Shown here in pieces: positions 6,991 to 58,198 of a DNA stretch of 64,000 nucleotides. Below the pieces are notes generated by a model. The model ran no database searches and was not told the origin of the DNA. It saw only the letters and a program-made list of their open reading frames with translations. The position numbers and the translations under genes are program-made. Origin of the DNA: Malacoraja senta (lineage: Eukaryota); contig CM075989.1 of NCBI GenBank assembly GCA_038087875.1, positions 24,368,001 to 24,432,000 of the forward strand, read 5' to 3'. The first letter of the stretch is position 1; the number at the start of each line of letters is the position of its first letter.

Positions 6991-7863
6991 AATATCTTAG
7001 GTGTTGTTATATTTATTGAGCCAGATCTTGTTCACCTGATGTTCTCTTCTAGAACAGACACAAAAAGCTGGAGCAACTCAGCGGGACAGGCTGCATCTCT
7101 GGAGAGACCCCTCTTCAGACTTGAAATCTGAAGAAGGGTCTCGACCCGAAACATCACCCATTGCTTCTCCCCAGAGATGCTGCCTGTCCCGCTGAGTTAT
7201 TCCAGCATTTTTGTGCCTATCTTTGTTGGCTGTGGTCTCCCCCATGTCTACATCTACCCAGCCGAGAATCAGAAGGTCACTCTTCCTGCCTGGAGTTCGC
7301 TTGATGTCAGCCCTGGCTTGCACAGCAATAGGATCTCAAGATTCAGTTTAGTTTATTATTGTCACGTGTACTGAGGTACAGTGAAAAGCATTTTGGTGTG
7401 TGCTATCCGGTCACGAATAGACGATACGTGATTACAATCAAGCTTCCACAGTGTACAGATACAGGATAGAGGATACAACTTTTATGTAAGATCAAGTCCA
7501 GTAAAATCTGATTGAAGATGTTCCACTGATGTATAAAGGAAGCCACAAACCACACAGCAGGAAAAGCAAAGGGACATGTAATATAAAAATTAAATGATAT
7601 CATGTATAGACTGGGGTTGACCTGTGGGCTCGAGGTGGAGACCGGTGGTGGAATGGGCTGACAGTCCAAACCTCACAATAGATTGAAACTGTTCTCAGGT
7701 CCAGTCACCAAACATAAAAATGAATAGATGCATTGAGAGTCATAGAGTGATACAGTGTGGAAACAGGCCCTTCAGCCCAACTTGCCCACACCAACCCATG
7801 TCCCATCTACAGTCATCACACCTGCCTGCTTTTGGCCCGCATCCCCCTAAATCTGTCTAATGT

Positions 7864-8129: not shown

Positions 8130-9605
8130 CTGTCTAATGTGAATGTTCCGTTCAGAATGAGCACTTGCATTTTTTAGTAACGGCTTTAATGCAGCAAAAT
8201 GGTCAGGAAAGCGTAGGAAAACAAAACAGATTTGTGCTGGAGGTTCTTGCTGTGCACAGACGTCCCATGCTCCACATGAAAGCCTGCGTGCATCTATAAG
8301 ACAAGATGATTACATTTATTGTTACATAGCTGAATTTAATTCAGCTAAAGGTTGGCTCCGAGTTCTGATTTTTACATCAGCCAAAAAGCATAGATGTCTT
8401 GATAAATGGAAAACATCAGGCGATCAAAACAACTGTGAAGCATAAGTCCAATGTGAAAAGACTCTATTGTCAGTTCATCAAAGATCCAAGATCTTATCCA
8501 AACTGCAGGATTAGTGGATGGACTCAGGGGAGTGGTGGAAGATTGCAAAAATATGTTTCTGCCTTACCCAACCTCCCTCTCATTTTGAGAAGGGTTGGGT
8601 CCAGAGCCTCGTTTTATGGATGTTAGAAAATTGTTCCCGTCTCCCAACATTCCAGAATGGAAACCAAATGTTTCAATGGACACCAGCAATCAGACGTGCA
8701 AAATAAAAAGCTCAACATCTTGAAGATTTGGAACTCTGACCAATTATTAACCCTGAGGATAGGCACAAAATGCTGGAGTAACTCAGCAAGTCAGGCAGCA
8801 TCTCTGGAGAGAAGGAACGGGTGACGTTTTGGGTCGAGACCCTTCTTCAGACTCGACCCGAAACATCACCCATTCCTTCTCTCAAGAGATGCTGCCTGTC
8901 CCGCTGAGTTACTCCGACTTTTTGTGTCTATCTTGGTTTAAACCAGCATCTGCAGTTCCTTCCTACACACTAACCACAGGGCACAGGTTGCTAGTCTCTC
9001 TAAACCCTCTTTGTGTAGCCAGCCATTCTCCCGCTCATTGGTCTGGATTACCACATCAACTGGTGACCCAACTCAGCACGAAAGCAGCAAATGTCCTGCA
9101 CGGCAGCACAAATGGATCAGGGTCAAAGACTGATAACTACACGCCAGAATCCGGACTGCCTGTTATGTCAAATCTCTTGAAAAGAGTGAAGAATAAGAAG
9201 CTGTTACACAATCTCCGTCTCAGCCAGTGGTTGCCCAGCTGCCAACTTGGCCACAGAGCAAGAGGAGCAATCGGTGTTCTCAGTTTCATTGTCCCAGACT
9301 GGAACTAATTACCAAATGTAAAGTCAGATCAAAATGTCAACTGTTTAGCCGCTATCTCAAAGAATTGCCTGATATGTGAACCAACATTATTATTTTTACG
9401 CATTATTAATCCTGACCTCCCATCGACCTTATTGGAGACCTTTGAGCTATCTTTATTCGGACTTTGTCTCACTTCAATGTTATATCTTGCACTAAATGTT
9501 GCGCCCTCAATCCCATCTGTACCTGGCGGGCGGCTTGATTGCATTCATGTATAGTCTTTTCTTTGACTGGATAGGACATAAACATAAGCTTTTCACTGTA
9601 CCTCG

Positions 9606-12955: not shown

Positions 12956-13176
12956 ACACAAAATGCTGGAATAACTCAGTGAGACAGGCAGCATCTGTGG
13001 ATAGAAGGAATGGGTGACGTTTTGGCTCGAGACCCTTCTCCAGTCTGAAGAAGGGTCTCGACCCGAAACGTCACCCATTCCTTCTCTCCAGAGATGCTGC
13101 CTGTCCCACTGAGTTACTCCAGCTTTTTGTGTCTATCTTCGGTGTAACCAGCATCTGCAGTTCCTTCCCACACACT
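12956..13176. mobile_element. Fold-back Penelope pLTR element
   Basis: About 90-bp inverted arms centred near 13043. TSD taaacatag at 12947 and 13177. Confidence 0.88.
13045..13072 (+). ncRNA. Minimal hammerhead ribozyme-like core
   Basis: CTGAAGA-A-GGGT-CTCG-ACCC-GAAA-CGTC, inside a fold-back pLTR element. Confidence 0.7.
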
Positions 13177-14658: not shown

Positions 14659-15854
14659 GTATTGGGGAAAACACCATCACAGACTGCGACACACTGCCTG
14701 GTGATAATACAGGCCAAACGCAGGCAGGTGGGACTAGTGTAGCTGGGACATTGTTGGCCGGTGTGGGCAAGTTGGGCCGAAGGGCCTGTTTCCACACTGT
14801 ATCACTCAATGACTATTCAAAATTCAACATCGGTGAAGCAAACACCTTTTGTCAAGTGTGCTTTTATTATGTCATGGATAATCAGTTTTGAATTGACTGA
14901 AACGTTTTCCTTTAAGTTAAATAAAGGATATCAACATTTAGAGTCACAGAGTGATACAGCATGGAAACATGCACTTCGGCCCAACATGCCCACACCGACC
15001 AACATGTCCTAGCTACACTAGTCCCACCTGCCCGCATTTGGTCCATATCCCTCTAAACCTGTCCTATCCATGTACCTGTCCAAATGTCTTTTAAATTTTG
15101 TGATAGTCCCTGCCTCAACTACCTCCTCTGGCAGCTCATTCCATACACCTACCACCCTTTGTGTAAAAAGGTTGCCTCTCAGGTTCTTATCTTTCCCCCC
15201 TCACCTTAACCTACAATGATAATTATTTGGAATTAGACATATCCTAAAAGTTAAGTACAAATGATGTTGACGTACTCAGCCAAGTACTGTAAATAACGGG
15301 TTTTAAGTCTCGGCAAGAAGCTAGCAGTTGTTCTGGCTGTGTCTAACACATGCTGGGGAGTTCACACTGTGGTTTAGAGGTCAGTGTCAGTGCCATGGAT
15401 TCACCATGAATGAGTACATCGTATCTACAGGCCCCTCATGTTTTACGCCTGTTTGATTTATGCATTTTTGAAATAATGTGCCTGATCTTTGATTTACACC
15501 CTCGTATATTGGGAATAACACGGTCCAACCTACACCTGGCAGTGTCGGCCAAATATGTTTAATTTATGCATGATGCGGTGCTTTTCATGAATGTGGCGTC
15601 TGTGTAAAGCACGAGGTATTTATTTATACCTGTATTGTATTTGTATAAATTTGTGGGACTTCCGGTCAGATATTTTGGTCAGAAATTGTCTTGGGGCTTC
15701 TTCACTCTAGGGTAAACAAATAAGTCGAATTATTTTTTCATGCAAGGGAGAAAGCCCAAGAATATTCCCACCAACCATTGCCCTGAAATTGATGCTGGTG
15801 TCTAAGGATCATATTCTATGTCCATTTTCCTTTTGTAAACTTCACAAAGGTCAA

Positions 15855-21783: not shown

Positions 21784-24700
21784 CTGATTCTGGATGATCA
21801 GCCATGATCACATTGAATGGTGGTGCTGGCTCAAAGGGCTGAATGACCAACTCCTGCACCTATTTTCTATGTTTTATGTTTGTAAACCCTGTTCTCTGGC
21901 GATCACTGTATCTGTAGTGGAGAGTCAGGCACAGCCAAATAGTTCTCTAGTTTTAGTTTAGTCTTTTTGTTCTTAGTTTAGAGATACAGCGCGGAAATAG
22001 TCCTCCGGCCCACTAGTCCTCCGCTAGTCCGCGCCGACCAGCGATCCCCCATTCACTTTCGCTATCCTACACACACTCGGGACAATTTACCTTTTTTTCC
22101 CCTGAAGTCAATAAACCTAGAAACCTTCACGTCTTTGGAGTGTTGGAGGGAAACGGATCACCCAGAGAAAACCCACGTGGTCACAGGGAGAACGTACAAA
22201 CTCCGTACAGACAGCACCCGTAGTCAGGATGGAACCTTGGTCTCTGGTGCTGTGAGGCAGCTGTAACTCAGCCAATGTGTTGCCCTATCTTTGATCGCTC
22301 TTCCTTGGTGAGGTTGTACTTTGCCTGGTACCTTCCCACATCGGGGCGATTAAGCTCCCGCATCGGGGGGATCTTAGCTCCCCCGTGCCGGGCGATCGGA
22401 CCCCGGGTCGGGGCGAGTCGAACTTCCTGCACTTGGAGCTTCCCGACATCAGTCACTACCCGAGACTGCGAACTCCTCGATGCTGAAATCCGCAGGCCGC
22501 AGTTGGAGCGTCGATCCCAGGGAAGGGATCGCAGGCTCCGATAGTAAGTCCACGGCCCCACGGTGGAGCTCCAAGTCAGTCTCGAGCAAGGCCTCCATCT
22601 CCATGATGTTTGGCCGCAGATCGACCGGAGATACGATCTGGAAAACAATCGCATCTCCGGCAAGGTAAGCGATTGCAAAAATAAATTCCCCCACCCCCGA
22701 CATAAAACAAACCAGAGAACACTAAAACATACTCTTTAACATGGACTTAAAATAACAAAACAGAGGAAAGGACAGACAGAATGTTGGCGAGGCAGCCATT
22801 GCCGGCGCCACCTTGTGAGCTGAGTGGGAGATATGCAGGAAACGAGTGATATGGATCACATGTAGGCAGAAGAGATTCATTTACTTTGGCAGCATGTTCA
22901 GCATGGAGCCGAAGGGCTTGTTGCTGTGCTGGTCTGTCTCGACAGTATACTGTATGTTGCTATTCTTCTTATCTAAGAATGTATCTGAGTAAACTGATAT
23001 CATTAACAATATATTCCAACTTTATGCTCCATATTTCAAATCACCCTTACCAGCCCTTGCGTTTCCACCAAACAATGACTAATGCATAGTCTTCTGAGAT
23101 TTATTACAATACATGTTTGGCTGCAATTAAGATGACAGAATATTTTCCTGATCAGTTAAATCAAATGTGAAATGCAAATTGCAATATAAAATTGCAGCAA
23201 AATAAATATTTCTGCATCCAGATTTCTCTAAATCTCTGAATAGCTCAGTAAATGGGTTTAAAATATACGACGGAAATATTAGCACTGTAGCCGCAATGCA
23301 TGTTATCAATAACTCATGCTGTGGGCCTGACAAGATTTCGTTGATTTAATAATAAAAATTTACGTCGAGATTTTTTTAACGTGACTCAAATTTTCCTTGC
23401 ATTCCTTCTTAATGTCAAATAATAGTCAAGGATTCAAAAATATACAGCTGCGTTTTATATTTGGTGAACAGCATTACCATGCGGTGATTTTCAATCTCGC
23501 CTTTACCTTATTGAAGGGAATAAAGGTAAAAGATGAAATAAGTAGCAAGGAACTGCAGATGCTGGTTTAAACCGAAGTGAGACACCAAAAGCTGGAGTAA
23601 CTCAGCGGGTCAGACAGCATCTCTGGAGAGAAAAGGAACAGGTGACGTTTTGGGCAAGACCCTTCTTCCTTTTCTCCAGAGATGCTGTCTGACCCGCTGA
23701 GTTACTCCAGCTTTTGGTGTCTATCCTTGACAGGAACTGTTAGGTCAATCTAAAGCCATAGTTTCGTTGCCAGTTTCCAGAATAAATACAATTCTTGATA
23801 AATTTATGGAAAATATGTGCAGAGAAGTATAAACTAATCTAGCAAATGTAAGTCACACAAATAATTGTGCTGTGTATTATATTTAAATTGAACTTCATAA
23901 ATTAGAAAATAGTACAATAAGTTTGCTGAACCTCGGTTGGTAAATAATTGAATGAGTGTTCGGCGAGAAGGCTTTTATTTGTGGATAAACAACAGTATTA
24001 TAGGCAGTGGAAATACTTACCATTTGTTCATATTTGTGCATTTATGTATTGTCCAATTATGTTTGTGTATACAGCTGTTTTAAGTTGGTCTTTTCCCAGA
24101 TTAGGATCCTGGGCAATCGGGGAAATACCCCGTCATTTTACTTTCTCCAAATTATTAATGCCTCGTGACCCTTTTAAGAAAAGTTATGCATAAATTGTAA
24201 TAATTGTAGCATATTACTTGTACATATTTATTTTTCTGTTATGAAGTGCAATACTGAATACTGTACATTGTGTGTTATAAAGAATATTTTTGTTGGGACT
24301 TATCTTTGACTACCATAGCTTTTCTTCCAAATTGCTTTTCACTTCCTATTTAACATTATAATGCTCGTAGCTACGTTATGCACATCAAATCTGTCTCTTT
24401 TTTTCAGACATAGCAATGCACGTTACCTGGTAATGAAATTATCCCATGGTCAGGGTTTGGGAGGAATTACCTGAAGCAGTGCTAAATGCGAGGGGAATCG
24501 AAAGTGCTGCCCATTGACACCCTGGAGTCATTAACACTTTAAAAGCAGGCGCATAACAACTAGGCAATCTGGTGTTTTGCACTAAGGCCGAGTGCTCATT
24601 CTTGCCTTTGAGGGAGTGCAGCGTTGGTTCACCAGGTTAATTCCCGGGATGGCAGGACTGACATATGATGAAAGAATGGATCGACTGGGCTTATATTCAC

Positions 24701-30908: not shown

Positions 30909-33608
30909 CAACACATGTTTATTACCAGTTTGATTTCAACATTTCATCTTTGAACATCATTACTTGTGGACAATCCAGTCATTATTTTGAACTCTGTGAA
31001 ATGTCTAAGTAACCAGTTAAATGTTCTTCTGATCCGTGTGGTTTGCTGTGAGATTTCACCAGCATGATTGGCTGTGGAGCCAAAGTAGTTGCATCACATG
31101 TGGCCATTGTGTGGGTGTACTGTTAGAGATACAGCACGGATACAGGCCCCTACAGCCCACAAAGTCCGCGCCAACCAGCGATCCCCACACACTTACAGTA
31201 TCACCCTACTCACATTAGGGACAATTTACACATACACCAAGCCAATTAACCTACCAACCTGTACGTCTCTGGAGTGTGGGAGGAAACCAAAGATCGTGGA
31301 GAAAATCTACCCAGGTCACGGGGAGAAGGTACAAACTCCGTACAGACAGCACCCATAGTCGGGATTGAACCCGGGTCTCCAGCGCTGCAGGCACTGTAAG
31401 GCAGCAACTCTACCGCTGCGCCACCGTGCTGGCCTTATTTATGGGCAGCTTGACAAGTGTCTCCGCACTTCTCTCTGCAATCATCCACAACCCTTCAGTG
31501 ATAATAGTTTTCTTAACCACGTTAGCTTTATATCTTCCTTAACCAAAGGATGAATGGCAAAGGGTCAAAAGTGCAAACAAAAGTCAAATATATAATGTGT
31601 GTCCTGACAAACAATATGGATCTGATTTATAAAATATCCTGCTTGCAGCGTATTGTAGCTATTGATGCTGCTGTGATAGATGTGTTCAATATTTCTCTCA
31701 CAGAAGTTACCCATTAAAAGGTCATTCCGTATATTTTTCTTACTTTTTTCTAACTCATATTTTTTTCATGATTTTCTCTGAGATAAAATTGGGACTAAAT
31801 TTGACGTAATTTTGCCCAGTTCAAATTATTTTCTCTCCTTTTGCTTGTTATTTTCTGAAATCATACCATTTATTTTGTCATTCTTAAACTGTTTACAGAT
31901 TTAGTCAAATGTCAGTTTGCAAAGATTAATCAATATCTTCAGTCTACAATATGAACAAGATACTAAAGAAAAATGGGCGGCGTGGTGGCGTAGTGGTAGA
32001 CTTACTGCCTTACAGCGCCAGAGACCCAGGTTCGATCCTGACTACGGGTGCTTGGCTGTATGGAATTTATACGTTCTCCCCGTCACCTGCATGGGTTTTA
32101 TATATCTCTAAACTAATGATTTATTTAGGTTTGCAGTCTACTCTTAGGATGTTTTTCTGTTCACCATTTCTATATACATTTACCTATGAACGCTGTAGGT
32201 AATGTAGCCAAACGTGACGCAGTACAGAGATGAAAGAGCTCTTCAACTCCTGAATTCACCCATGGCTCCTGATTTGCTTTGCTCCTGAAGATCTCATATT
32301 GATTAGATGCTTTGAAAGAGAGATTAACAATTGCATTCACTCATTCCTATTGTCAATGACAATTCACCCAAAAGTTCCTGGAGAGATTCCTTAATCATAG
32401 TGATACTGCGCAGAAACAGGCCCTTCGGCCCAATTTGCCAACACCGACCAACATGTCCCATCAACACTAGTCCCACCTGCCTGCATTTGATCCATATTGA
32501 CTCGTAGTCAGGATCTACCTTTCCCTCTCAACCCCATTATCTTGCCTTCTCCCCATAACCCTCGACACTCTTACCAAGAATCTGTCAATCGTTGCCTTAA
32601 AAATATCCATTGACTTGGCCTCCACAGCCGTCTGTGGCAATGAACCCCACAGATTTACCACCCTCTGACTAAAGAAGTTCCTTCTCATCTCTTTCCTAAA
32701 GGTGCATCTGTTCATTCTGAGGCTGTGGCCTCTGGTCCTAGACTCTCCCAAAAGATTCCAGTTGACTTGTGATGCATGCCTTCTAACTTTGCAATGTATT
32801 CTGCCTATCCTGATGACCTCAATAGCCTTTAATGGAATCTCACAAAACATCTTCCCAGCTCCAGATGTTCGACTAACTAATCAACACTAATCCACTGTGA
32901 CAACCTGGGAAGACTTCTGTGCAAATAAAATGATTCTGTGATCCAGGTGGAGGGATGGACCTCACGAGAGATGTGAGTCAGGGCGGGTAATGGCTCTCAG
33001 TCCCAGCTCCAAATCACAATGGTGTCCTCCACTCTGCAAGAAATTGCAGAATTACCACTTCCACACATAATTGGCAAACGCATAAAGTCATTTCTTTCTC
33101 TGTCGAAATAACAAAACGTTGTCTTTCTCCATAATGTAATGCAGCTGTCATAATATTGCTGGCATGAGTTTCGTTCTGTAGGTTAGTCAGGATGCACAGA
33201 CTCGCCCTTCGAATGTTAACAATTTTATTCGTATGGTCCCTATACATGCCAATAATTTAGTAAAGTATTTTTAAAATGTGTTCATCTAGGGAGCTTTGTT
33301 GTAGAATAAATGTATGATATTCAAAAAAGAATGAAAGATTTGCAAATATTAGATGTGATTCCTAATTGGCGCTGTAAAATTTGATGAGCAAATGTCCCAT
33401 CAATTGACCATGTTTTATTCATTAAAACTGCAGTTTTCGCAATTATCAGGATATTGGAAAGGAATATATGATAATTAAACTATCTTGTAAGTGACATCAG
33501 AGTGGGCACATAATTTGGGTGCAGGAACTCTGATTTCCCTAGCCCACTGCTTCATCCAAAGAACCCAACGGTATCATTTAGACATGTTATACCTTCTGAT
33601 TCTCCGTG

Positions 33609-33912: not shown

Positions 33913-34318
33913 TGATTGTCCGTGGGAAAGTCAAATGTTGCTTCGTTGTGACATGGGATTTAAATATCCTCGTGTTGAAAAGATTTCATGCATAATGAAT
34001 GTTGAATCTGCGAGTCCTTGTTTCGAGTCTTTTATTTCTGTGCGAGTATCTTACCTATAAATAAATACTGTATTTATTTCAGCCTGACTATGACAGCTTA
34101 ATGATGTGAAATGAACAAGAACACAAAGCACAAAGTGCTGGAGTATCTCAGCGGGACAGGCAGCATCTCTGGAGAACGTGGACAGGTGACTTTTCTGGTC
34201 AGGACTCTTCTTCAGACTGATTGTTGGGGGTGGGGGGAGAGGGATTTGGGCCAGACGTAGGCAAATGGGACTAGCTTAGATGGGGCATGGACGTCAGACT
34301 GATCAAGGATCCTGAACA

Positions 34319-34580
34319 GAAACGTCACCTATCCATGTTCTCCAGAGATGCTGCCTGACCTGCTGAGTTACTCCAGCACTCTGTGAAACGTCACCTATCC
34401 ATGTTCTCCAGAGATGCTGCCTGACCCGCTGAGTTACTCCAGCACTCTGTGAAACGTCACCTATCCATGTTCTCCAGAGATGCTGCCTGACCCGCTGAGT
34501 TACTCCAGCACTCTGTGAAACGTCACCTATCCATGTTCTCCACAGATGCTGCCTGACCCACTGAGTTACTCCAGCACTCT
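34319..34580 (+). repeat. 66-bp tandem array (4 units) of a pLTR segment, within a fold-back element at about 34130-34615
   Basis: Unit gaaacgtcacctatccatgttctccagagatgctgcctgacccgctgagttactccagcactctgt starts at 34319, 34385, 34451 and 34517. Confidence 0.95.
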
Positions 34581-36326
34581 TTTTTTTTGTTATAAATCAG
34601 TACCTGCAGTTCATTTCTATAGAAATATAAAGCACAGCATGTTCTGTAAACACATAATCAAGGAGAAATTATGAATAGGGGAGTTTCTGCAGCTGTTATT
34701 AATTGTCTTTTGGATGTGAATATTAAAATCCTAATATTGAAATATTGGCTAAATGTGAGGGTTCATTAAGAAGTGAATTTGGAAGCGATAACTTTGAAAT
34801 GCAATTGCTGCTGGGTGAATTGTTATTTTTAAATGAGATAATTATACATATTAGTAAGTTATTAAAGGGGTATGGTGCTAAGGCCAAGGTGTAGAATCAT
34901 AATGGAATATTATAATTGAATAATGGGGTTGGGCCTGAGGGAGGTTCATTGAATATACTTGGCTTCTCAGCCCCACCAGTAATTCTGAACCAACTACTGG
35001 GTTTAGAAAAGAGTTACTTCATCTAATAGCTTCTAGCTAATTATATGCAAATTGTGACACCATAACAATTTCCAGTAAACATCATGGGGTTGGGCGTCTT
35101 GGGACAGTCTAAAGGGTAGGGTGTTCGTGGTTGTTCTCTCAGCCCATCAAACTCGCTTGGAATCTGGCCCTAAAAATGGGTCATTGCATATTTTCACGTT
35201 CCAAAATGCCCTGCTGGTATTGCCTCACAGCGCCAGTCCCGGGTTCGATCCCGATCACGGGTGCTGTCTTTACGGAGTTGGTACATTCTCCCTATGACTG
35301 CGTGGGTTTTCTCCGGGTGCTCCGGTTTTCTCCCACACTGTAAAGACGTGCAGGTTTGGAGGTTAATTGGCTTCGGTAAATTGAAAATTGTCCCCAAGTA
35401 AGTAGGATAGAACTAATGTAAGGGGTGACCGCTGATCGGCGTGGACTCTGCGCTGTATTTCTAATACATTTCTAGCATCACATGCTGTTCGGTTAATGAT
35501 ATTCTTTTTCATGTAGGCCTGTTTGAACTGTTTTAAAATATCTGATTCTCTCAGGTGCAAGAATCTGAACCCTGCCACTATTTTTTTTATTTAGGATTTC
35601 AATTAAAGAACATTGCCTGTCTATTATGAAGTACTATCACACAATTTACCACGATCAATAATATGGGGTTGTAGGGACAGGTGTCAGCTGTTTACCTTGT
35701 GAGCACCTCACACCATTCAGTGAGATGCTGGGTACTTTGTGATCAAATTCCATACAGCTGTCTTTGTTCCATATCCCATAACACTTGTGGGTAACAAAAG
35801 TTTAGCACCTTCCTTGTTAAAATTAATAATTAATCTAAAGCCAATTTTGCATGTGGAATGTTTCCTATTTTTCACAGTCGCTTGGGACACATAATTACCA
35901 AAATAAAATCTTCTATAAATTTCCTTTTTTATCTGGAAAACTTAGAGTGATAGAGTCACAGATACAGTGTGGAAACAGGCCCTTCGGCCCAACTTGCCCA
36001 CACCGGCTAACATGTCCCAGCTACACTAATCCCACCTACCTGCTTTTGGTCCATATTTGTCCTATCCATGTACCTGTCTGTTTCTTAAACGTTGGGATAG
36101 TCCCTGCCTCAACTACCTCTTCTGGCAGCTTGTTCCTTGCACCCAGCACCCTTTGTGTGAAAAAGTTACCCCTCAGATTCTTAGTGAACCTTTACCCCTT
36201 CACCTTAATCCTATGTCCTCTGGTCCCCAATTCACATACTCTGGGCAAGAGACTCTGTGCATCTGACCCAGCTATGCAATAAAAATGAACGTCAAATGCT
36301 AGTTTATGCCAAAGATAGACCCAACA

Positions 36327-36650
36327 TGCTGGAGTAACTCAGCAGGTCAGGCAGCATCTGTGGAGAACATGGATAGGTGACGTTTCACAGAGTGCTGGAG
36401 TAACTCAGCGGGTCAGGCAGCATCTGTGGAGAACATGGATAGGTGACGTTTCACAGAGTGCTGGAGTAACTCAGCGGGTCAGGCAGCATCTGTGGAGAAC
36501 ATGGATAGGTGACGTTTCACAGAGTGCTGGAGTAACTCAGCGGATCAGGCAGCATCTGTGGAGAACATGGATAGGTGACGTTTCACAGAGTGCTGGAGTA
36601 ACTCAGCGGGTCAGGCAGCATCTGTGGAGAACATGGATAGGTGACGTTTT
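36327..36650 (-). repeat. 66-bp tandem array (5 units), same unit in the opposite orientation
   Basis: tgctggagtaactcagc starts at 36327, 36393, 36459, 36525 and 36591; an inverted arm follows to about 36733. Confidence 0.95.
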
Positions 36651-37684
36651 GTGTCCGACCCAAAATGTCACCTGTCCATTTTCTGCAGAGATGCTGCCTG
36701 ACAAGGTGAGTAATTCCAGCACTCTGTGTCTATAGTAAAGAATCAGAACATGTTCACCTAGCACTGAATGATGCCTTTAAATGAAAAATATGGAATATAT
36801 AAACAACATTTTAATGAACAGAGAAGTCCAAACTTACTTTGAAATGATACGGAATCAATACTGTTATTTACCAACATTTTTATTGTAAATATTGACATCA
36901 ATTTTAAATACTCTGCTACCGAGGATTTTTTTTTAATTGTACAAAGAATGATTATGCTACAGATAAAGATCTGCATCAGAATATTTCTAGTAATTACATG
37001 AATGTGATTAATTCTTCTGTTTTTTACTGTCATTTCATTTTAAGATACTACTGATAATTAGGGAAAATTCAAAGAAAGGATCTGCTGTGAAACTTTTGTG
37101 AATATATTAGGTGGAAGATCACCTGATTATTTATGGTTTATTCTTTATTATAATATATTAAGATCATATTCTTCTTTGTGGCCAATGCATTAAAGAACGG
37201 AGCCTTATTTTAATCACTGTCAAGCAGCAATATATCTACATTTTACAGGAAAATTAAGAGGGAATGCTAGAGATTTAAAATAAGGCTGAATTGTCAGGCA
37301 TTGAATAGATAGTACAGAAATTGTACATATGCATTATTGTATGTTGTTGGTTAGCCAAATTACAACAGCTATAGTTTAAAATATACTAATCATCAACAGT
37401 GTAAAATAAACCTGAAAATAACTTGGAAAAATATGTTGCTTCTGATATTTTGAAGGATTTACTCCCTTCATTAAAGCAAAATACATTAATAGACTGAATT
37501 TCTCACATACATAGTCATCATTACCAGAATAAATTATGATTACAAGGAGAGAAATAAAAATCAATGTCACTGCCTTTGGCAGAATAGTGTAAAGGGATTA
37601 TAATTTGAATTACAAAATCGGAATAGGTTTGATATTGTCTAATGAATGCAACATAATTAACATCGGAAGTTACATTTCTAGATA

Positions 37685-38670
37685 TTAGGACATCACAGCC
37701 ACTTCTTTTGGAATTGGCATTTCATTTGGCATCACCAGTCTTTCTTCTGATGGTGTTATCTTGTGGAAGAACTTATGTCCACGCGAATCAGTGGTTTCAA
37801 ACACAAAGCCTGGTGGAGTGGGATAACTGGCGGGGCATATTTCTAGCCTCTTTGGAGTATACTCAGTGCGATACAAGGTTCCAGCATCAAATGGTGTTTT
37901 ACTGTGGAGAGGAACATTGGCAGGTTTGAAGCTTTGCAGCGGGTGGATTGGATGAGGGACATAGTTTGCCTTAAAAGTTGTCAAGCCGTCAAATTTTGCG
38001 CATGACACTTTTAATTCTTCGCCGCGTTTGATCGCCTCTGGCTTCTTTACATCCCATGTCTTGAAGTCATCCTTCATGGTCGTACTCCCTTGGAAAGGTG
38101 CATGGACCTTTCTAGCACTCGCAGGTTTAAATGGAGCAGGTGGCTTAACATTGTGTCCAATGTAGTCAAGGTGGGAAGTCGTATTCAGATCCATTGGGCC
38201 ATCGGGTTGCACGTAGTCTGGATGTTTGTGCATGTACGGCAAACTGACCGGCCAGGCCTGATAGCGGTCACGGAATTCTGAATTCCCGTCAAAGGGTGCG
38301 TCTGATCCTATTTTTGACTGTTCTGGTTTAAAGCTCTTTGTTATATCGCCGTGCATTCCTGTGTAATCCCGACGGTGAGTGGTGAGAGCTTCAAAAGGTG
38401 TGTCACTTGGTTTATATTCCTCTCGTTGTCTGACAAACCGCTCCCCCAACGGGTGGGCTACATAAGATATTTTGTGATTCGTTAGGTTATCAAAGGGGAC
38501 ATCAGATGTTTTGGGGATATCGGGTGGTTTGAAACTCTCCCGCAGTGAATACATCTTGGGACCATAGTCATCTTGGAACGTGGATGGGTTTCCAAAGCGT
38601 GCAGCGGGGGGACAATATGCTTGTGATGGTTTAGGCTTCCTTTTAGGAATGTCCCACATTCGGTAATCAT
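37685..38670 (-). CDS. SAXO2: Stabilizer of axonemal microtubules 2, exon 4 (terminal)
   Basis: Long exon with recurring (T/S)x(Y/F)xxD(Y/F) Mn-type repeats and C-terminal EICPASYPTPPGFVF...GHKFF typical of SAXO2. Acceptor AG at 38672-38671, phase 1. Confidence 0.93.
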
Positions 38671-40174
38671 CTATTTTTAAAAAAGTGCTGGTATATTAGA
38701 ATACATCTTCATAAGTAGATTGGACTTTAAGCAAACAGAACTGAATTATCACTATTTTACATGAACTAAATGTAAGCATTAACAAACAAGATCACACCAC
38801 ACTAGCCTTTAAACAAAGTTAAAGACAAACAGAGGTGGGGATGTATCGACTTATCAGTTGCAATGCTGAAGAATGATCTGATTTTCATGAATGTGTCTGA
38901 ATGCAATAACTCATAAATCTAATATTATTTAAATGTTAATATTTATCTAACATTTAGAATTGTGTTTAATTAAGTAACACGTAGTGCATAGAGATTGTAA
39001 ATGATTTCAAGAAACAGTGAGAATGATTCTCATTTCACCATTGCTTCATTCTTAAGTGTAAATTTGCCATTATTAGTCAACCTTAAAAGTAATCAGGATA
39101 AGAGGAGATTTTAGGTCTTGGAAAAAGTCTTTTTTTTCTTCAGTAGGTCGAATTTAGTCAAATCGATGTTAAAGAGGAGTATAGAAATACATGGTTAATG
39201 CTGAAGGTGGACAAAAATGCTGGAGGAACTCAGCGGGTGAGGCAGTATCTATGGAGCGAAGGAAATAGGTGACCTTTCGGGTCGAGACCCTTCTTAATGC
39301 TAATGTAGTTCAAGGAATGTTGGTGTTTAAAGGTCTTCCGAAGGAATACCAATGCAAATACAGGTGTTCTGGTGGAATAGTGACTGACACAGTCCACACA
39401 AATGTGTTAAACTAGCAATATTAGTAATAAATATAATTCTGACATTTAAGCCACTTTCATCCCTGTCTAAGAGATACATTTATAAAGGCAAATTCAATTG
39501 ACTGCGATTTTTGCAACTGGTGTCAGGGGTTATGGGGAGAAGGCATGAGAATGGGGTTAGGAGGAAGAGATAGATAAGCCATGATTGAATGACGGAGTAG
39601 ACTTGATGGGCCAAATGGCCTAATTCTGCTCCTATCACATGACCTTATGAACTGAAGTATGCAGAACAACAAAGGTTTTATAAGATAGATTGCAAAGGAT
39701 AATGAATATAATTCCAGTCTGTTCTCTTTGGTAATGACTGGAAATGTTTTTAATTGATCTTTGTGACATGCTTGGCAAAGTTGAACCTGTACCCCATTGT
39801 TAGTCTTCTGTATAATTTTTAGACTGCATGGCACACTCAGCCCCTTCAGAGAGCTTTAAAATCCAGTTACATAATGAAGAACAGTCACGCGTAGGTCGAA
39901 GCTAATTGAGGTGATAACTTGACATCCCCGGAGTACTTCCAGAGTATTCCATTTGTCCTCATGTGATGATATGACATATTTTGATTATCAGTGCACACGT
40001 GACCAAATGTTATGAATTTACTTTCACATTTTCTCCAGGTTGCTGGCCAGTCCCGTCACGTCCAGGTGATCAGACCTGTTTGTGTAATTTGTACTACAGT
40101 GCAGGGAGACATGGGTAGAATCTATTAAGATTGGAGTTAACAATTAAACAAAAGAAGTATCGATAACCTTCTAC

Positions 40175-42426: not shown

Positions 42427-43120
42427 CTGTAAATGAAAATGAGACCAGTTTTACTCGTGAGTCCAGATTACTTCTGATAGTGATCAGTAAAAAGGCAGAA
42501 AATAAGTCAAGAACGTTAGATATATTCTGCAATGCTGCCACATAGTGGTGCACAATACAACCAAGACTTTGCTTTGCAAGTTCATTAAAGCAGATAAATT
42601 GCACATTTAAATTAAATTAAATGGGACGATGCTTTTCATAAAAGAGCAAAGAAAAATGTAAGAAAACGTACAATGTTTACAGCAATTATGGTTTCCAGCC
42701 ACACAATGTCAAAACATAAGGCAACATTATCAGAGTGTGTTGTCTGCAAGATGTGCATGATTTTCACAAATATGAAGAGCTCATTGTAAATTAAACAAAC
42801 AAAAAGCACAGTATCAGGTTGCTACAAGTAACTTCCAAAATTATTACCAGTAGTTCCATTTGGTGCAATGCTCGACTTTGCTTTGGTAAATATACCATCA
42901 ATAATCTTTCAGAATATGCCATTTCTATCTTCAAAGCAACCGTCTTTGTAGCCTGCAAGTTTTATGGTTTTAACAGGTTTAGACTTTGGGTTTCAGTGAA
43001 CAACATTTATTTATTTTCTTTGAAAGAAATGCATTAAAAAAAAGGAGAGATTCTGAGAGGGTGGGGTTGGGATTAATGAGTTTGCAAGTGACAGAGAAAG
43101 GGCTAAAACAGTGGAGGAAG

Positions 43121-43550
43121 AGTGCTGGAGTAACTCAGTGGGTCAGGCAGCTTCTGTGGAGAACATGGATAGGTTACGTTTCACAGAGTGCTGGAGTAAC
43201 TCAGCGGGTCAGGCAGCATCTGTGGAGAACATGGATAGGTGACGTTTCACAGAGTGCTGGAGTAACTCAGCGGGTCAGGCAGCATCTGTGGAGCGAAGGA
43301 AATGGGCAACCTTTCGGGCCGAAACCCTGAAGGAAATAGGCAACGTTTCGGCCCGAAACCCTTCCGGGTTTCGGCCCGAAACGTTGCCTATTTCCTTCGC
43401 TCCATAGATGCTGCCGGAACATGGATAGGTGACGTTTCACAGAGTGCTGGAGTAACTCAGCGGGTCAGGCAGCATCTCTGGAGAACATGGATAGGTGATG
43501 TTTCGGGTTGAGACCCTTCTTCGAACTGATACCCTTCTTCGGACTGATTG
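43121..43550 (-). repeat. 66-bp tandem array (4 units) interrupted by a palindrome of a second pLTR subfamily
   Basis: Units at 43123, 43189, 43255 and 43445; inverted repeat at about 43278-43415. Confidence 0.9.
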
Positions 43551-45003: not shown

Positions 45004-45822
45004 GCTCTGTGACTGGAGATGACAACGTGAGCAGGGTTGAGGATGTGGCAGGCAGCACTGGTTCTCCCTGGTCAGAGCTGCAGACGCATGGCCCCACTTT
45101 ACAAATGGCTATTTGTCAAGATAATGGGGGACTCAACACTCTTCAATCTGCACTTTGGCAGGAGATAGGAAGGGAAGGAGTTTAAACTGAACCTGTCTGT
45201 GTTGTCAATTTCTCTTTTGTACATAGATAACAAAAGAGTTTAGTCAACTCTTGGTTTCCAGGGAACACTCTATAGCAACCAAACTTTAAAACAACATGCA
45301 AAATATCACCAGCGCACCAAGTACCTTTGGTCTCTTTTAACAGGCAACTTATTTTAAATATGTCAAAAGAAAAGTTATTTCTAAACAACAAGATAGATTT
45401 TGCACTTTGGAGTTAGCAGTAAATTGCATTCAAAGTACAATAGTTTATTTATTGATTTTACGCTGCAATTTTCTGTTTAATTTCAACTGATAGTCAGAAG
45501 TATAAAATGTTCTGTAAACTGCACAATGGGAAAATACCTTATAATGCAAGATTTTTTTGTGATACTTTTAAGAATGGTAACCAGAAGACTACTGTTTATT
45601 AAATTTAAAATGGGTTGACCAGAACAATAATCAGAGCTCCTCATACACTCACAGAGTGATCCTGAGCTTCTGGCCTGATGCCGTTGTATTTCACCATCCT
45701 ACTCTGACTTTTCTGTCAGTGCTCACCAACACTGCTATAACGAGATTCAAGGCAAGCTTGACAAACAACCATTTTAATCAATGCATATTTCAACCTTAAG
45801 GACTCAACAGTGTCTAACTACT

Positions 45823-48147: not shown

Positions 48148-48360
48148 TCTGAAGATTGACACAAAAAGCTGGAGTAACTCAGTGGGACAGGCAGCATCTC
48201 TGGAGAGAAGGAATGGGTGATGTTTCAGGCCGAGACCCTTCTTCAGACCCAAAACGTCATCCATTCCTTCTCTCCAGCGATGCTGCCTGACCCGCTGAGT
48301 TAATCCAGGTTTTTGTGTCTATCTTCGGTTTAAACCAGCATCTGTAGTTCCTTCCTACAC
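48148..48360. mobile_element. Fold-back Penelope pLTR element nested in a CR1 fragment
   Basis: Inverted arms; TSD atccttttctc at 48137 and 48361. Further members at about 2108, 7056, 8760, 10215, 19659, 23545, 55326, 57145 and 59772. Confidence 0.85.
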
Positions 48361-53196: not shown

Positions 53197-53396
53197 NNNN
53201 NNNNNNNNNNNNNNNNNNNNNNNNNNNNNNNNNNNNNNNNNNNNNNNNNNNNNNNNNNNNNNNNNNNNNNNNNNNNNNNNNNNNNNNNNNNNNNNNNNNN
53301 NNNNNNNNNNNNNNNNNNNNNNNNNNNNNNNNNNNNNNNNNNNNNNNNNNNNNNNNNNNNNNNNNNNNNNNNNNNNNNNNNNNNNNNNNNNNNNNN
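53197..53396. other. Assembly gap (200 N)
   Basis: Run of N, preceded by C/T low-complexity sequence at about 53010-53196. Confidence 1.
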
Positions 53397-55260: not shown

Positions 55261-58198
55261 GTAAATTATTTAGTAGAATTGCACACAATAGTATCATTGA
55301 ATTATGTACAACAGGATCTGCATCGAAGATAGACACAAAATGCTGGAGTAACTCAGCGAGACAGGCAGCATCTCTGGAGAGAAGGAATGGGTGACGTTTC
55401 GGGTCGAGACCCTTCTTCAAACCCGAAACGTCACCCATTCTTTCTCTCCAGAGATGCTGCCCGTCCCGCTGAGGTACTCCAGCATTTTGTGTCTATCTTC
55501 GATTTAAACCAGTATCTGCAGTTCTTTCCTACACAGATGTTGTGTTTGATTTGCTGTTTGCCAGAACAATTAAAAACAGATCACATTGCTTTGCTCCCTT
55601 GCAATAGCCATGTATGTTCCTGTATGTCAACTATTTATCGATTTTTTTTCCTCGTATGAAGTGTAGCTGTCTTTTCAATCACTCTATTTTTATTACCACA
55701 AAATTAGTTTCTCTTGCTTTTGTTGAATTAGTTCCTGATCCCCAAACCAGGTGAACGTTTTACATTTATATTCTCTCAAAATCTTATGTTGTTTAAAAGG
55801 TCTTCTTTACAGTATGGTGTGCATTGCAGATTAGTAATCAGGAAACTTAGATTAATAATGCAGAGATCTGAGTTCCGATCCAAATTCAATTAGTAACCTG
55901 GATGTTTTTTTCATATTGGTCCTTTCTAATAATGTCCATAATACTATCAGATTGTCATTGAAACCCAACTGGTTCAATAATATTCTTCAGGGAAAGACAT
56001 TTGCTCTCCTTATCAAGTCTGGCCTGTTTATGGTTGATGCCTGAATGCCCTTTCATTTTGTGGAGTGAATGAGTTCAGTGAGGCTGTTGTCGGTTTTATC
56101 ACAGCATCTTAAAGTTACATAGCACGGAAACAAGCCCTTTGATTCAACTTGTCTTTGCCGACCAAGTTGATAACCTGAGCTAGGGTTTCGACCCGAAACG
56201 TTGCGTATTTCCTTCACTCCATAGATACTGCCTCACCCGCTGAGTTTCTCCAGCATTTTTGTCTACCTAGTCCCAATTGCCTGTGTTTGGCCTATATTAC
56301 AGTAAACATTTCCTGCCAGTGTACCTGTCTAAATGTATTTTAAACATTGCAATCATACCCGCCTCTGCAGCTTCCTTTGGCAGCTTGTTCTATATTCCCA
56401 CTGCCCTCCATGTTAAATGATGCCCCTCGGATCCCTTTGAAATCATTCCCCTTTCATTTTAATCACATCTCTAGGTTTATGCTTCCATACCCTAAGACAA
56501 GGACTATGACCATTCATCTTATCAATGACACTCATGATTCTATATACCACTATAATGTCACCCCACGGCCTCCTTAGTTCCAGGGATGAAAGCCCCAGCC
56601 TATCCAGCCTCTCCTGGTAACTCAATCACTCCAGTCCAGGTAACGTTGTTGTGAATCTTTAATGCACTCTCTCCAGGTTAGTGACATTGTTTCCTGTAGC
56701 TGGGTGAGCAGAACTGCACACAATATCCAAGTGTGTGTCACCAACTACTTGTATGGTTGTAACATGGCATCCCAATCCCGATACTCAATGTTCTGATCAA
56801 TGAAGGCAAATGTGCCCAAATGTTGGGAAAGCTAGCTCTATAAAAAAAAAAATCTTCAGGTAATCTATGCCAGGGAATCACAATTTTGGTTATCTTTTGT
56901 TTGCAGTTACTAATGAAGGACTATAGGAAGGTTGCCACAATACAATCCTTCTTGACATCCCAACATGATTACTTAATTGCAACCCTTCATTCAGGAATGT
57001 GGCTTCCACTAAATAGGAAATCAGGAAAGCATTTAATTGAAACTTAAGGCTTTACAAATGTCCAGATGTTGTAGCGATAATCAGCTTTATAGATTTTGAA
57101 GTGGAAGACTAGTGGCATATGGGAGAACCATTCTAAATACACTGTGTGTAGGAAGGAACTGCAGATGCTAGTTTAAACCGAAGACAGATACAGAAAGGTG
57201 GAGTAACTCAACGGGTCAGCCAGCTTTTCCCCAGAGATGTTGCCTGACCCACTGAGTTACTCCAGCTTTCTGTGTCTGTCTTCATCATAAATACATTATT
57301 CTCTTCACCAGCTATTGTGTGTACTCTCAAAAGAATGCTCAGGTTATTCTGACTTTCCAAACTTGCAGCCTTTACCACCAAGAAGCAACTGAATGGGAAC
57401 ACCATCACGCATCCCCCTCCACATCATGCATCACCCTGACATGGAAATATATCACTGGCCCTTCACTGTCACCTGGTCCAGATGCTGAAACACCCTGCCC
57501 AGCAGCACTGCACACCAGCAGGGCTGGAGCTGACCACTACTTCTCCAGGGCAGTTTGTGGTGGGCAACTAATACTGGCCTTGCTGGGGGCTGCCAAATCC
57601 TAAAAATGAGTAGTTAACAGTATTTTTGTGGTATTTTTATAATATCACAATATTTTCAGAGGAGTTCTTTTAGTTTTTTTTTAGTTTAGAGATACAGCGT
57701 GGAAACAGGCCCTTCGGCCCACCGAGTTCATGCTGACCAGTGATGCCCGTTCACTAGTTCTATCCTACACACTAGTGGCAATTTACAGAAGCCAATTAAC
57801 CTACAAACCTGTGGGTCTTTGGAGAGTGGGAGGAAACTGGAGCACCAAGGGGTAAACCCCACACAGTCATAGAGAGAACGTGCAAACTCCTTACGGACAG
57901 CACCCATCGTGCGTATCAAACCCGGAACTCTGGTGCTGTAAGGCAGCAACTCTACCACTTCGCCACTGTGCCGCCCTGAAAGGCTCTTCTTATGCCTAAT
58001 TAGTTTAATTCATTAAGAATGAAAAGTTACATATGTCCCTTTGGGAATTTTGTTGATGAATGGCACCATTCATTTGAGCCTGATCATCACCACTTGCAGT
58101 TATAGGATTTAAAAGATAGATTAATGAATGATTGCACTCCAGTTATAAATAGAAAAATGGCTTGTGGAAGATAGTACATGTTGCCTTATATTTCACAG

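Follow-up and report, generated by a model that had tools for sequence, protein, structure and literature searches.

The nearest described system to the repeat reported here is sSat3 of snakes, a 67-nt internal piece of a SINE that is found in tandem at thousands of dispersed subtelomeric loci (Vassetzky et al. 2023, PMC10702118). In the sections of that paper dealing with spread between loci, this was attributed to unequal recombination and concerted evolution, and no further route was given. In non-LTR retrozymes each unit contains an entire type I hammerhead, as described in PMC7229834 and by Li et al. (bioRxiv 10.64898/2026.07.22.740005), the supplements of the latter listing retrozyme families for one cartilaginous fish. 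The Cla-element of Chironomus forms minisatellite-like mobile clusters by a mechanism there called unknown (bioRxiv 10.1101/080721), and a title cited in the same source reports its co-transposition with flanks. How tandem repeats with one junction spread to thousands of loci is an open question for satellites derived from transposable elements, such as sSat3 and Cla.

In the whole 64-kb stretch of DNA that was analysed (the window), a 66-bp unit formed arrays at three loci. As in sSat3, so far as its published description goes, a piece internal to a short retroelement and shorter than it was repeated in tandem at many loci, with one shared junction, greater uniformity than the parent and a subtelomeric bias (here with two interior exceptions). 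The parent here was a Penelope pLTR, whereas that given for sSat3 is a tRNA SINE; units were 98% alike, compared with a reported 89% in sSat3; and most arrays retained old parent sequence at both ends, which the snake paper describes as a minor class. Unlike its account of spread, host mosaics, passengers and a donor-recipient pair here indicate invasion of pre-existing copies. Like the non-LTR retrozymes of the sources above, the arrays were non-coding, tandem, dispersed, transcribed and related to the pLTR of a Penelope-like element (PLE) in the same genome (~80% identity), but their units held the GAAA/cleavage half of the hammerhead only and would fail the filter described in bioRxiv 10.64898/2026.07.22.740005. 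The arrays are best read as a transposon-derived dispersed minisatellite and not as a retrozyme.

With PLE pLTRs bearing minimal hammerheads (PMC4209133, PMC11167929) the arrays shared the sequence itself, that of both unit and hosts, and a coding family was present; unlike the PLE insertions of this genome, they lacked even spread and inverted 5′ arms. The Cla unit is AT-rich and 120 bp long, and the targeting of homologous relics, as seen here, is not reported for it in the source cited. No paper on the 66-bp repeat or on array invasion of old copies was found in a literature search, and Repbase or Dfam may catalogue the unit. Human minisatellites cluster subtelomerically. In gene conversion of Alu elements and in cDNA-resident chimeras of L1, an old copy has its middle overwritten by young sequence, with no new target duplication; such events are sporadic and keep the copy length, whereas here tandem units were added, thousands of times.

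The 66-bp unit and its three arrays

Tandem Repeats Finder detected a 66-bp period at 34319–34580 (4.0 copies), 36327–36649 (4.9) and 43119–43293 (2.7), and the 16-mer across the junction between units occurred nine times exactly in the window (three, four and two times in arrays 1, 2 and 3; 0.03 times in shuffles), confirming the preliminary description of one unit with an identical junction at three loci. The 16-mer was also found with one mismatch at 43175 and with two mismatches at 30990, an unrelated place.

Array 1 (34319–34580, + strand) comprised four 66-bp units with three exact junctions. It was preceded by the old head of its host (34297–34318, +), a degenerate hammerhead with stem II and a broken CUGANGA box, and followed by an old pLTR tail of the host (34581 to about 34620, +); an older inverted pLTR copy (34130–34217, −), 91% identical to the unit and devoid of the junction, lay upstream. 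Array 2 (36327–36649, −) comprised five units with four exact junctions, the last unit stopping at unit position 60. It had no CUGANGA head, and its head-to-head host consisted of an old inverted arm at 36663–36727 (+, 86% identical to the unit) and an old pLTR tail at 36290–36326 (−, end approximate). Array 3 (43119–43504, −) had the order unit, passenger-carrying unit, unit, unit, next to an old, degenerate host head (43505–43526, −) in which both the core box and the cleavage triplet were altered. The four units earlier described for array 3 were present, one of them being split at unit position 22 by a 123-bp palindromic piece of a subfamily-B pLTR (passenger X, 43294–43416, −) that had gone unmentioned. 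The loop of this X (43355–43370) was inverted relative to most copies, with the same change in three compared X units, as expected from flipping between inverted repeats.

The unit corresponded to 66 of the ~125 bases of a pLTR element, namely the stretch after stem II of a minimal hammerhead. Its parent was a Penelope pLTR: the young subfamily B lay directly behind frames with reverse transcriptase (RT) motifs and GIY-YIG at several loci, and the pLTR behind such frames was ~80% identical to the unit. The hammerhead was assigned by eye, because it matches the minimal form described in PMC4209133 and because the same pLTR stands behind RT/GIY-YIG frames; Rfam detected no hammerhead, other ribozyme or credible family in the window. 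Units began at the GAAA box and lacked the CUGANGA box and stem II, as had been described, and every unit retained the GAAA box and the cleavage triplet, with half of the catalytic core absent. An array had at most one head, and both core boxes were intact in 18 of 75 heads in the array sample (see below) and in none of three in the window. Therefore the ribozyme is not needed in cis, and a working role for it there was not supported.

A T-run at positions 59–66, common to most old pLTR copies, was missing from array units. The monomer defined by cleavage was predicted to fold as a rod (−17.1 kcal/mol; z −2.96 as a linear and about −2.5 as a circular molecule), its predicted stem being lengthened by the junction, and the array-type bases 27 and 63 strengthening the stem that crosses it. 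The CpG of the cleavage palindrome was changed in 16/271 cases, compared with 28/269 for the CpG at 43–44 (p=0.06).

A 5′-truncated PLE with the end of the RT region and GIY-YIG, followed by a subfamily-B pLTR, was located at 45762 to about 47000 (+). Its protein was 86% identical to that of locus L168, and it represents the coding family related to the 66-bp repeat. A second Penelope-like family had an intact 759-aa RT and GIY-YIG frame with an overlapping 597-aa frame in front, at loci L161, L162, L175 and L176 (G000:C5550, C14:18.24–18.41 Mb and many small contigs), where many near-identical tandem copies and long simple repeats alternated at a chromosome end. The family was unrelated to the 66-mer at its ends, and this telomeric element was rejected as the coding partner because its loci did not match the unit. 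At L035:3732–3887, three tandem ~50-bp units, each with a degenerate head, formed a separate retrozyme-like local duplication.

Number, origin and distribution of the arrays

A 23-letter stretch across the junction was matched exactly at 15,536 places in the 1.94-Gb genome (control, 0) and was thus not confined to the region of the window. A merged sample of 1.08 Mb in 84 segments, which was enriched, part of it having been chosen around known matches, contained 129 arrays with 477 junctions, 375 of them exact; among its segments were contiguous tiled stretches, 264 kb long around the window and 160 kb long on contig C2. By scaling, the genome would hold about 5,300 arrays, provided that no giant array holds many of the matches. 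Head frequencies refer to these 129 sampled arrays and not to the genome. The junction position was homogeneous: among the 416 places in 1.67 Mb where pLTRs adjoined in tandem, 398 shared this one junction, and the remaining 18 were heterogeneous. All eight sampled words were present in 14 sequencing runs (three organism labels and one unlabelled; runs X15–X20, with metagenome labels and a low word share, were left out), and contigs under organism labels B and C covered the junction, which therefore probably predates a species split. The passenger junction was not bridged in the contigs of organisms B and C, which break at branches.

Poly(A) reads spanning the 66-base joint numbered 2,176 and 2,727 of 12.9 million records in two runs, excluding that the arrays were an assembly artefact. 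These reads came about equally from both strands and had no pile-up of ends, in data that cannot show small circles. The array transcripts look like read-through, and an RNA step may take part in array spread.

Passenger X was 124 bp long in most copies, and a diagnostic 20-mer had 1,634 exact matches genome-wide (counts with two mismatches were left out, as ordinary subfamily-B copies match too). X continued into a unit at all 30 loci fetched. Internal X units, 52 in number, were irregularly placed among 66-mers and never lay two side by side. In passenger Y, a longer form, X was joined by a spacer of 67 bases and by an inverted, complete arm of subfamily B; the 40 copies scored, out of 349 candidates, were all identical, and in 10 of 10 inspected Y lay among units with differing outer flanks. 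Judging from these sequences, X and Y would have started as DNA flanked by two arrays at a single locus and would have travelled with the arrays from then on. With such carriage, independent local slippage is ruled out, and neither a monomer circle nor reiteration on a one-unit template is needed or fits well. Slippage was also rejected because the junction had a microhomology of only 1–2 bases and passengers were common to different chromosomes. The junction has one origin, and arrays were copied from arrays. Thus two proposals of the preliminary description, that independent slippage is unlikely and that the concatemer is mobile as such, were borne out by the genome-wide count, the transfer of passengers between chromosomes and the use of one junction in nearly all adjacencies.

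Unit number also changed locally. In a 27-junction array, a block of three units with private changes occurred three times over, and arrays with several X repeated X together with its private changes. These duplicated blocks of private variants show that the arrays, after arrival, behave locally like a minisatellite.

The preliminary description had overlooked where the arrays mostly lie: within old pLTR copies that were already in place, and clustered towards chromosome ends. In spot tiles, junctions were found in 5 of 31 within 3 Mb of a contig end but in 0 of 51 interior ones (p=0.006, hand tally). Old pLTR hosts were present in nearly all tiles and were not clustered at chromosome ends, and young subfamily-B copies were evenly spread (37 in 1.08 Mb vs 13 in 0.40 Mb). 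Only 19 of the 1,634 X matches were on C1, although this contig is a fifth of the genome, and 39 of the 40 scored Y copies (of 349) lay within ~3.5 Mb of a contig end, with 25 at one end of C5. Dense array clusters were also seen inside two giant scaffolds (C1 219–227 Mb and C2 86–91 Mb), which may be ancestral chromosome ends or scaffold joins. Variants were regional: X was found in 4/9 arrays beside the window vs 0/52 at C1:2.7–3.4 Mb, C27G in 5/9 vs 3/54 and T66G in 4/39 vs 0/90.

Two arrays 177 kb apart, at C1:2.975 Mb and C1:3.152 Mb, formed a donor-recipient pair. The array at C1:3.152 Mb consisted of an A-type head, the broken end of the C1:2.975 Mb array together with the first 82–83 bases of the element inserted there, one unit again and then its own tail. 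The shared array end and the 82–83 flanking bases were 100% identical, the only identical two among 34 family matches, and the head subfamilies of the pair differed. Another candidate pair, C2:2.60/2.61 Mb, was rejected: it shared >1.3 kb of flank and was a local duplication or an assembly duplicate.

Ends, interiors and routes of spread

Internal units diverged by 1.2% from the unit and by 2.3% pairwise (n=272), compared with 12–19% from the unit for solo copies. A head in register was present in 75 of 129 arrays (random flanks pass in 39/500), and all 75 heads were distinct, with a pairwise divergence of 29% (solos, 22%). They came from several old pLTR subfamilies; among first units, 16 were of subfamily A and 13 of other types. 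The CpG at unit positions 5–6 was intact in 37/75 first units vs 255/272 internal units, and divergence at positions 1–11 was 0.19 and 0.07 in first units, 0.12 and 0.07 in solos, and 0.015 and 0.004 in internal units. Young sequence extended from ~28 on in first units and up to ~51 in last units. The earlier assignment to a single pLTR subfamily therefore held for internal units; heads, starts of first units and tails were older and mixed.

Of 172 A solos, 59% had the subfamily-A base at position 40, but in A-headed arrays the first or last unit kept it in 2/19 cases (p=2e-5; passenger-ended units were excluded, the count with them being 2/24). Therefore the middle of the host had been replaced and not split. 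Headed arrays belonged to the subfamily nearest the unit in 40/66 cases, headed solos in 14/238, and part of this excess may be A hosts that switched early. By a strict 20-base in-register test, pLTR was not recognised in 42/129 5′ flanks and 64/129 3′ flanks, many of which look by eye like natural short ends or later insertions. The 3′ end fell at 63–75 in 85/122 arrays vs 418/492 solos, array ends being similar to those of solos but more often truncated. The 3′ switch was narrow (52–67) and near the natural short 3′ end of the elements; the 5′ switch was broad. Flanking direct repeats were found for 7/125 arrays vs 15/620 shuffled pairs, with one convincing 14-mer. An inverted partner, the usual Penelope product, accompanied 387/846 solos (46%), compared with an inverted arm with junction in 4/129 arrays, and there were two head-to-head pairs of young arrays. 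A PLE-mobilised element would be of one age throughout, descend from few masters and have an inverted 5′ arm, as pLTR copies of this genome do; the arrays had old, distinct heads and young interiors and rarely had such an arm. Non-allelic gene conversion leaves old ends, a young middle and no new target duplication, and this was the pattern found.

Young arrays very probably entered old pLTR copies by homology. The reading that we prefer, and consider reasonably probable, is that a young, single-origin, pLTR-derived minisatellite invades old solo copies by homology-directed DNA repair, with several units copied. A break in an old pLTR copy would be repaired in an SDSA-like manner, with a strand invading an array that lies nearby or has paired ectopically; synthesis would pass n junctions and re-anneal in a later unit, turning a solo copy into an array. 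As reversal from array to solo would require the loss of every junction, the junction would possess a built-in drive. Overshoot beyond the end of the donor, or copying through array-bracketed DNA, would capture passengers (X, Y and the 83-bp piece), and after arrival unit number would change as in any minisatellite. The Penelope protein and the ribozyme would be likely bystanders, perhaps involved in the first duplication or in some breaks. Copying at the DNA level is favoured because of the end clustering, the regional variants, the 177-kb pair, the even spread of young subfamily-B insertions and the few inverted arms. Several observations run counter to break repair. The homology is just ~66 bp at 80–90% identity, which is short for vertebrate recombination, and the 3′ switch lies near the natural 3′ end, where the Penelope enzyme, by priming, would place it too. 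The arrays are transcribed, a related RT/GIY-YIG family has young copies, and the monomer is predicted to fold as a rod. Unrecognised flanks, truncated ends, the slight excess of direct repeats and the interior clusters on C1 and C2 also count against it.

The same footprint would result via an RNA intermediate if the Penelope RT/GIY-YIG protein nicked an old pLTR near its 3′ end and reverse-transcribed multi-unit array RNA there, the cDNA annealing to the 5′ part of the host and the middle being deleted. A PLE enzyme is known to cleave AT-rich DNA at its own pLTR and to start inside the RNA (PMC11167929). Such retrohoming, the main rival to break repair, is consistent with the narrow 3′ and broad 5′ switches, array transcripts from both strands, the existence of a coding partner family whose pLTR matches the unit at ~80% identity, the loss from array units of the T-run at 59–66 of most old copies and the two head-to-head pairs of young arrays. 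It appears unlikely, however, since young subfamily-B insertions are even and arrays uneven, a diffusible RNA sits ill with the regional variants and with the 177-kb distance between donor and recipient, and both inverted young arms (4/129) and de novo insertions with duplications are rare. It is rather improbable that the arrays are a protein-free, ribozyme-less parasite, whose RNA would hijack the Penelope RT/endonuclease, retrohome into dead pLTR copies, replace the T-rich nick site so that converted copies become immune, and carry array-bracketed DNA as cargo; if so, a vertebrate genome would harbour a homing drive with relic target sites in the hundreds of thousands. Extrachromosomal DNA circles, formed from arrays, optionally amplified by rolling circle and re-entering an old pLTR by homologous crossover, would account for arrays starting and ending at varying points of the unit, for the absent target duplications and for the local bias. 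A single crossover, however, would retain the whole host, split over the first and last units, whereas the host middle was lost (marker kept in 2/19), and arrays with several passengers had no repeating higher-order period, making this route very unlikely.

The preliminary description proposed that 66-nt RNA circles made by the hammerhead, or reiterative template jumping, gave rise to the concatemers in a retrozyme-like manner. The GAAA box and cleavage triplet in every unit would fit this, as would the predicted rod with its junction-extended stem and the slightly better kept CpG of the cleavage palindrome. Both variants, jumping on a one-unit template and rolling-circle copying of a monomer circle, nevertheless fit poorly with the arrays that mix 66- and 190-base units with 0 adjacent pairs among the 52 passenger units; telomerase-like reiteration on a one-unit template was rejected as a general source on the same mixing. 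Units also lack half of the catalytic core, few heads are intact, the poly(A) data, which could not reveal small circles, had no pile-up of read ends, and clustering and landing in old copies are left unaccounted for. We regard this origin as extremely unlikely. It is scarcely credible, too, that a dimeric element inserted long ago gave rise to the arrays and that concerted evolution between them has kept just their interiors young. Old heads and tails, local block duplications and enrichment of the subfamily closest to the unit (40/66) agree with this, but heads came from several subfamilies, 51 interior tiles had no diverged old arrays though old solos were common, and the 177-kb pair had differing head subfamilies.

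Old hosts, tracer passengers and the donor-recipient pair make the route of spread readable from sequence. If the preferred homology-guided invasion is general, dead transposon copies would constitute a landing-pad network by which the junction and inter-array cargo pass from one chromosome end to another with no transposase, and subfamily ages inferred from invaded copies would be misleading. Comparison of old ends with young middles offers a cheap test in snakes and in other sharks and rays.

Other features of the window

Dozens of older solo pLTR copies were present in the window, many of them paired head-to-head. About a dozen such pairs formed long hairpins (e.g. 2803–2943, 7067–7207, 8765–8915 and 12958–13123, with further pairs at 23591–23711, 48168–48308 and 55335–55490), and spurious miRNA-like Rfam matches in the window were due to these hairpins. 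A run of 200 N at 53197–53396 was distant from the arrays. A gene for SAXO1/2, a microtubule stabiliser, had a large exon at 37688–38695 (−; Pfam E 3e-65), flanked by arrays 2 and 3, which possibly sit in its introns.
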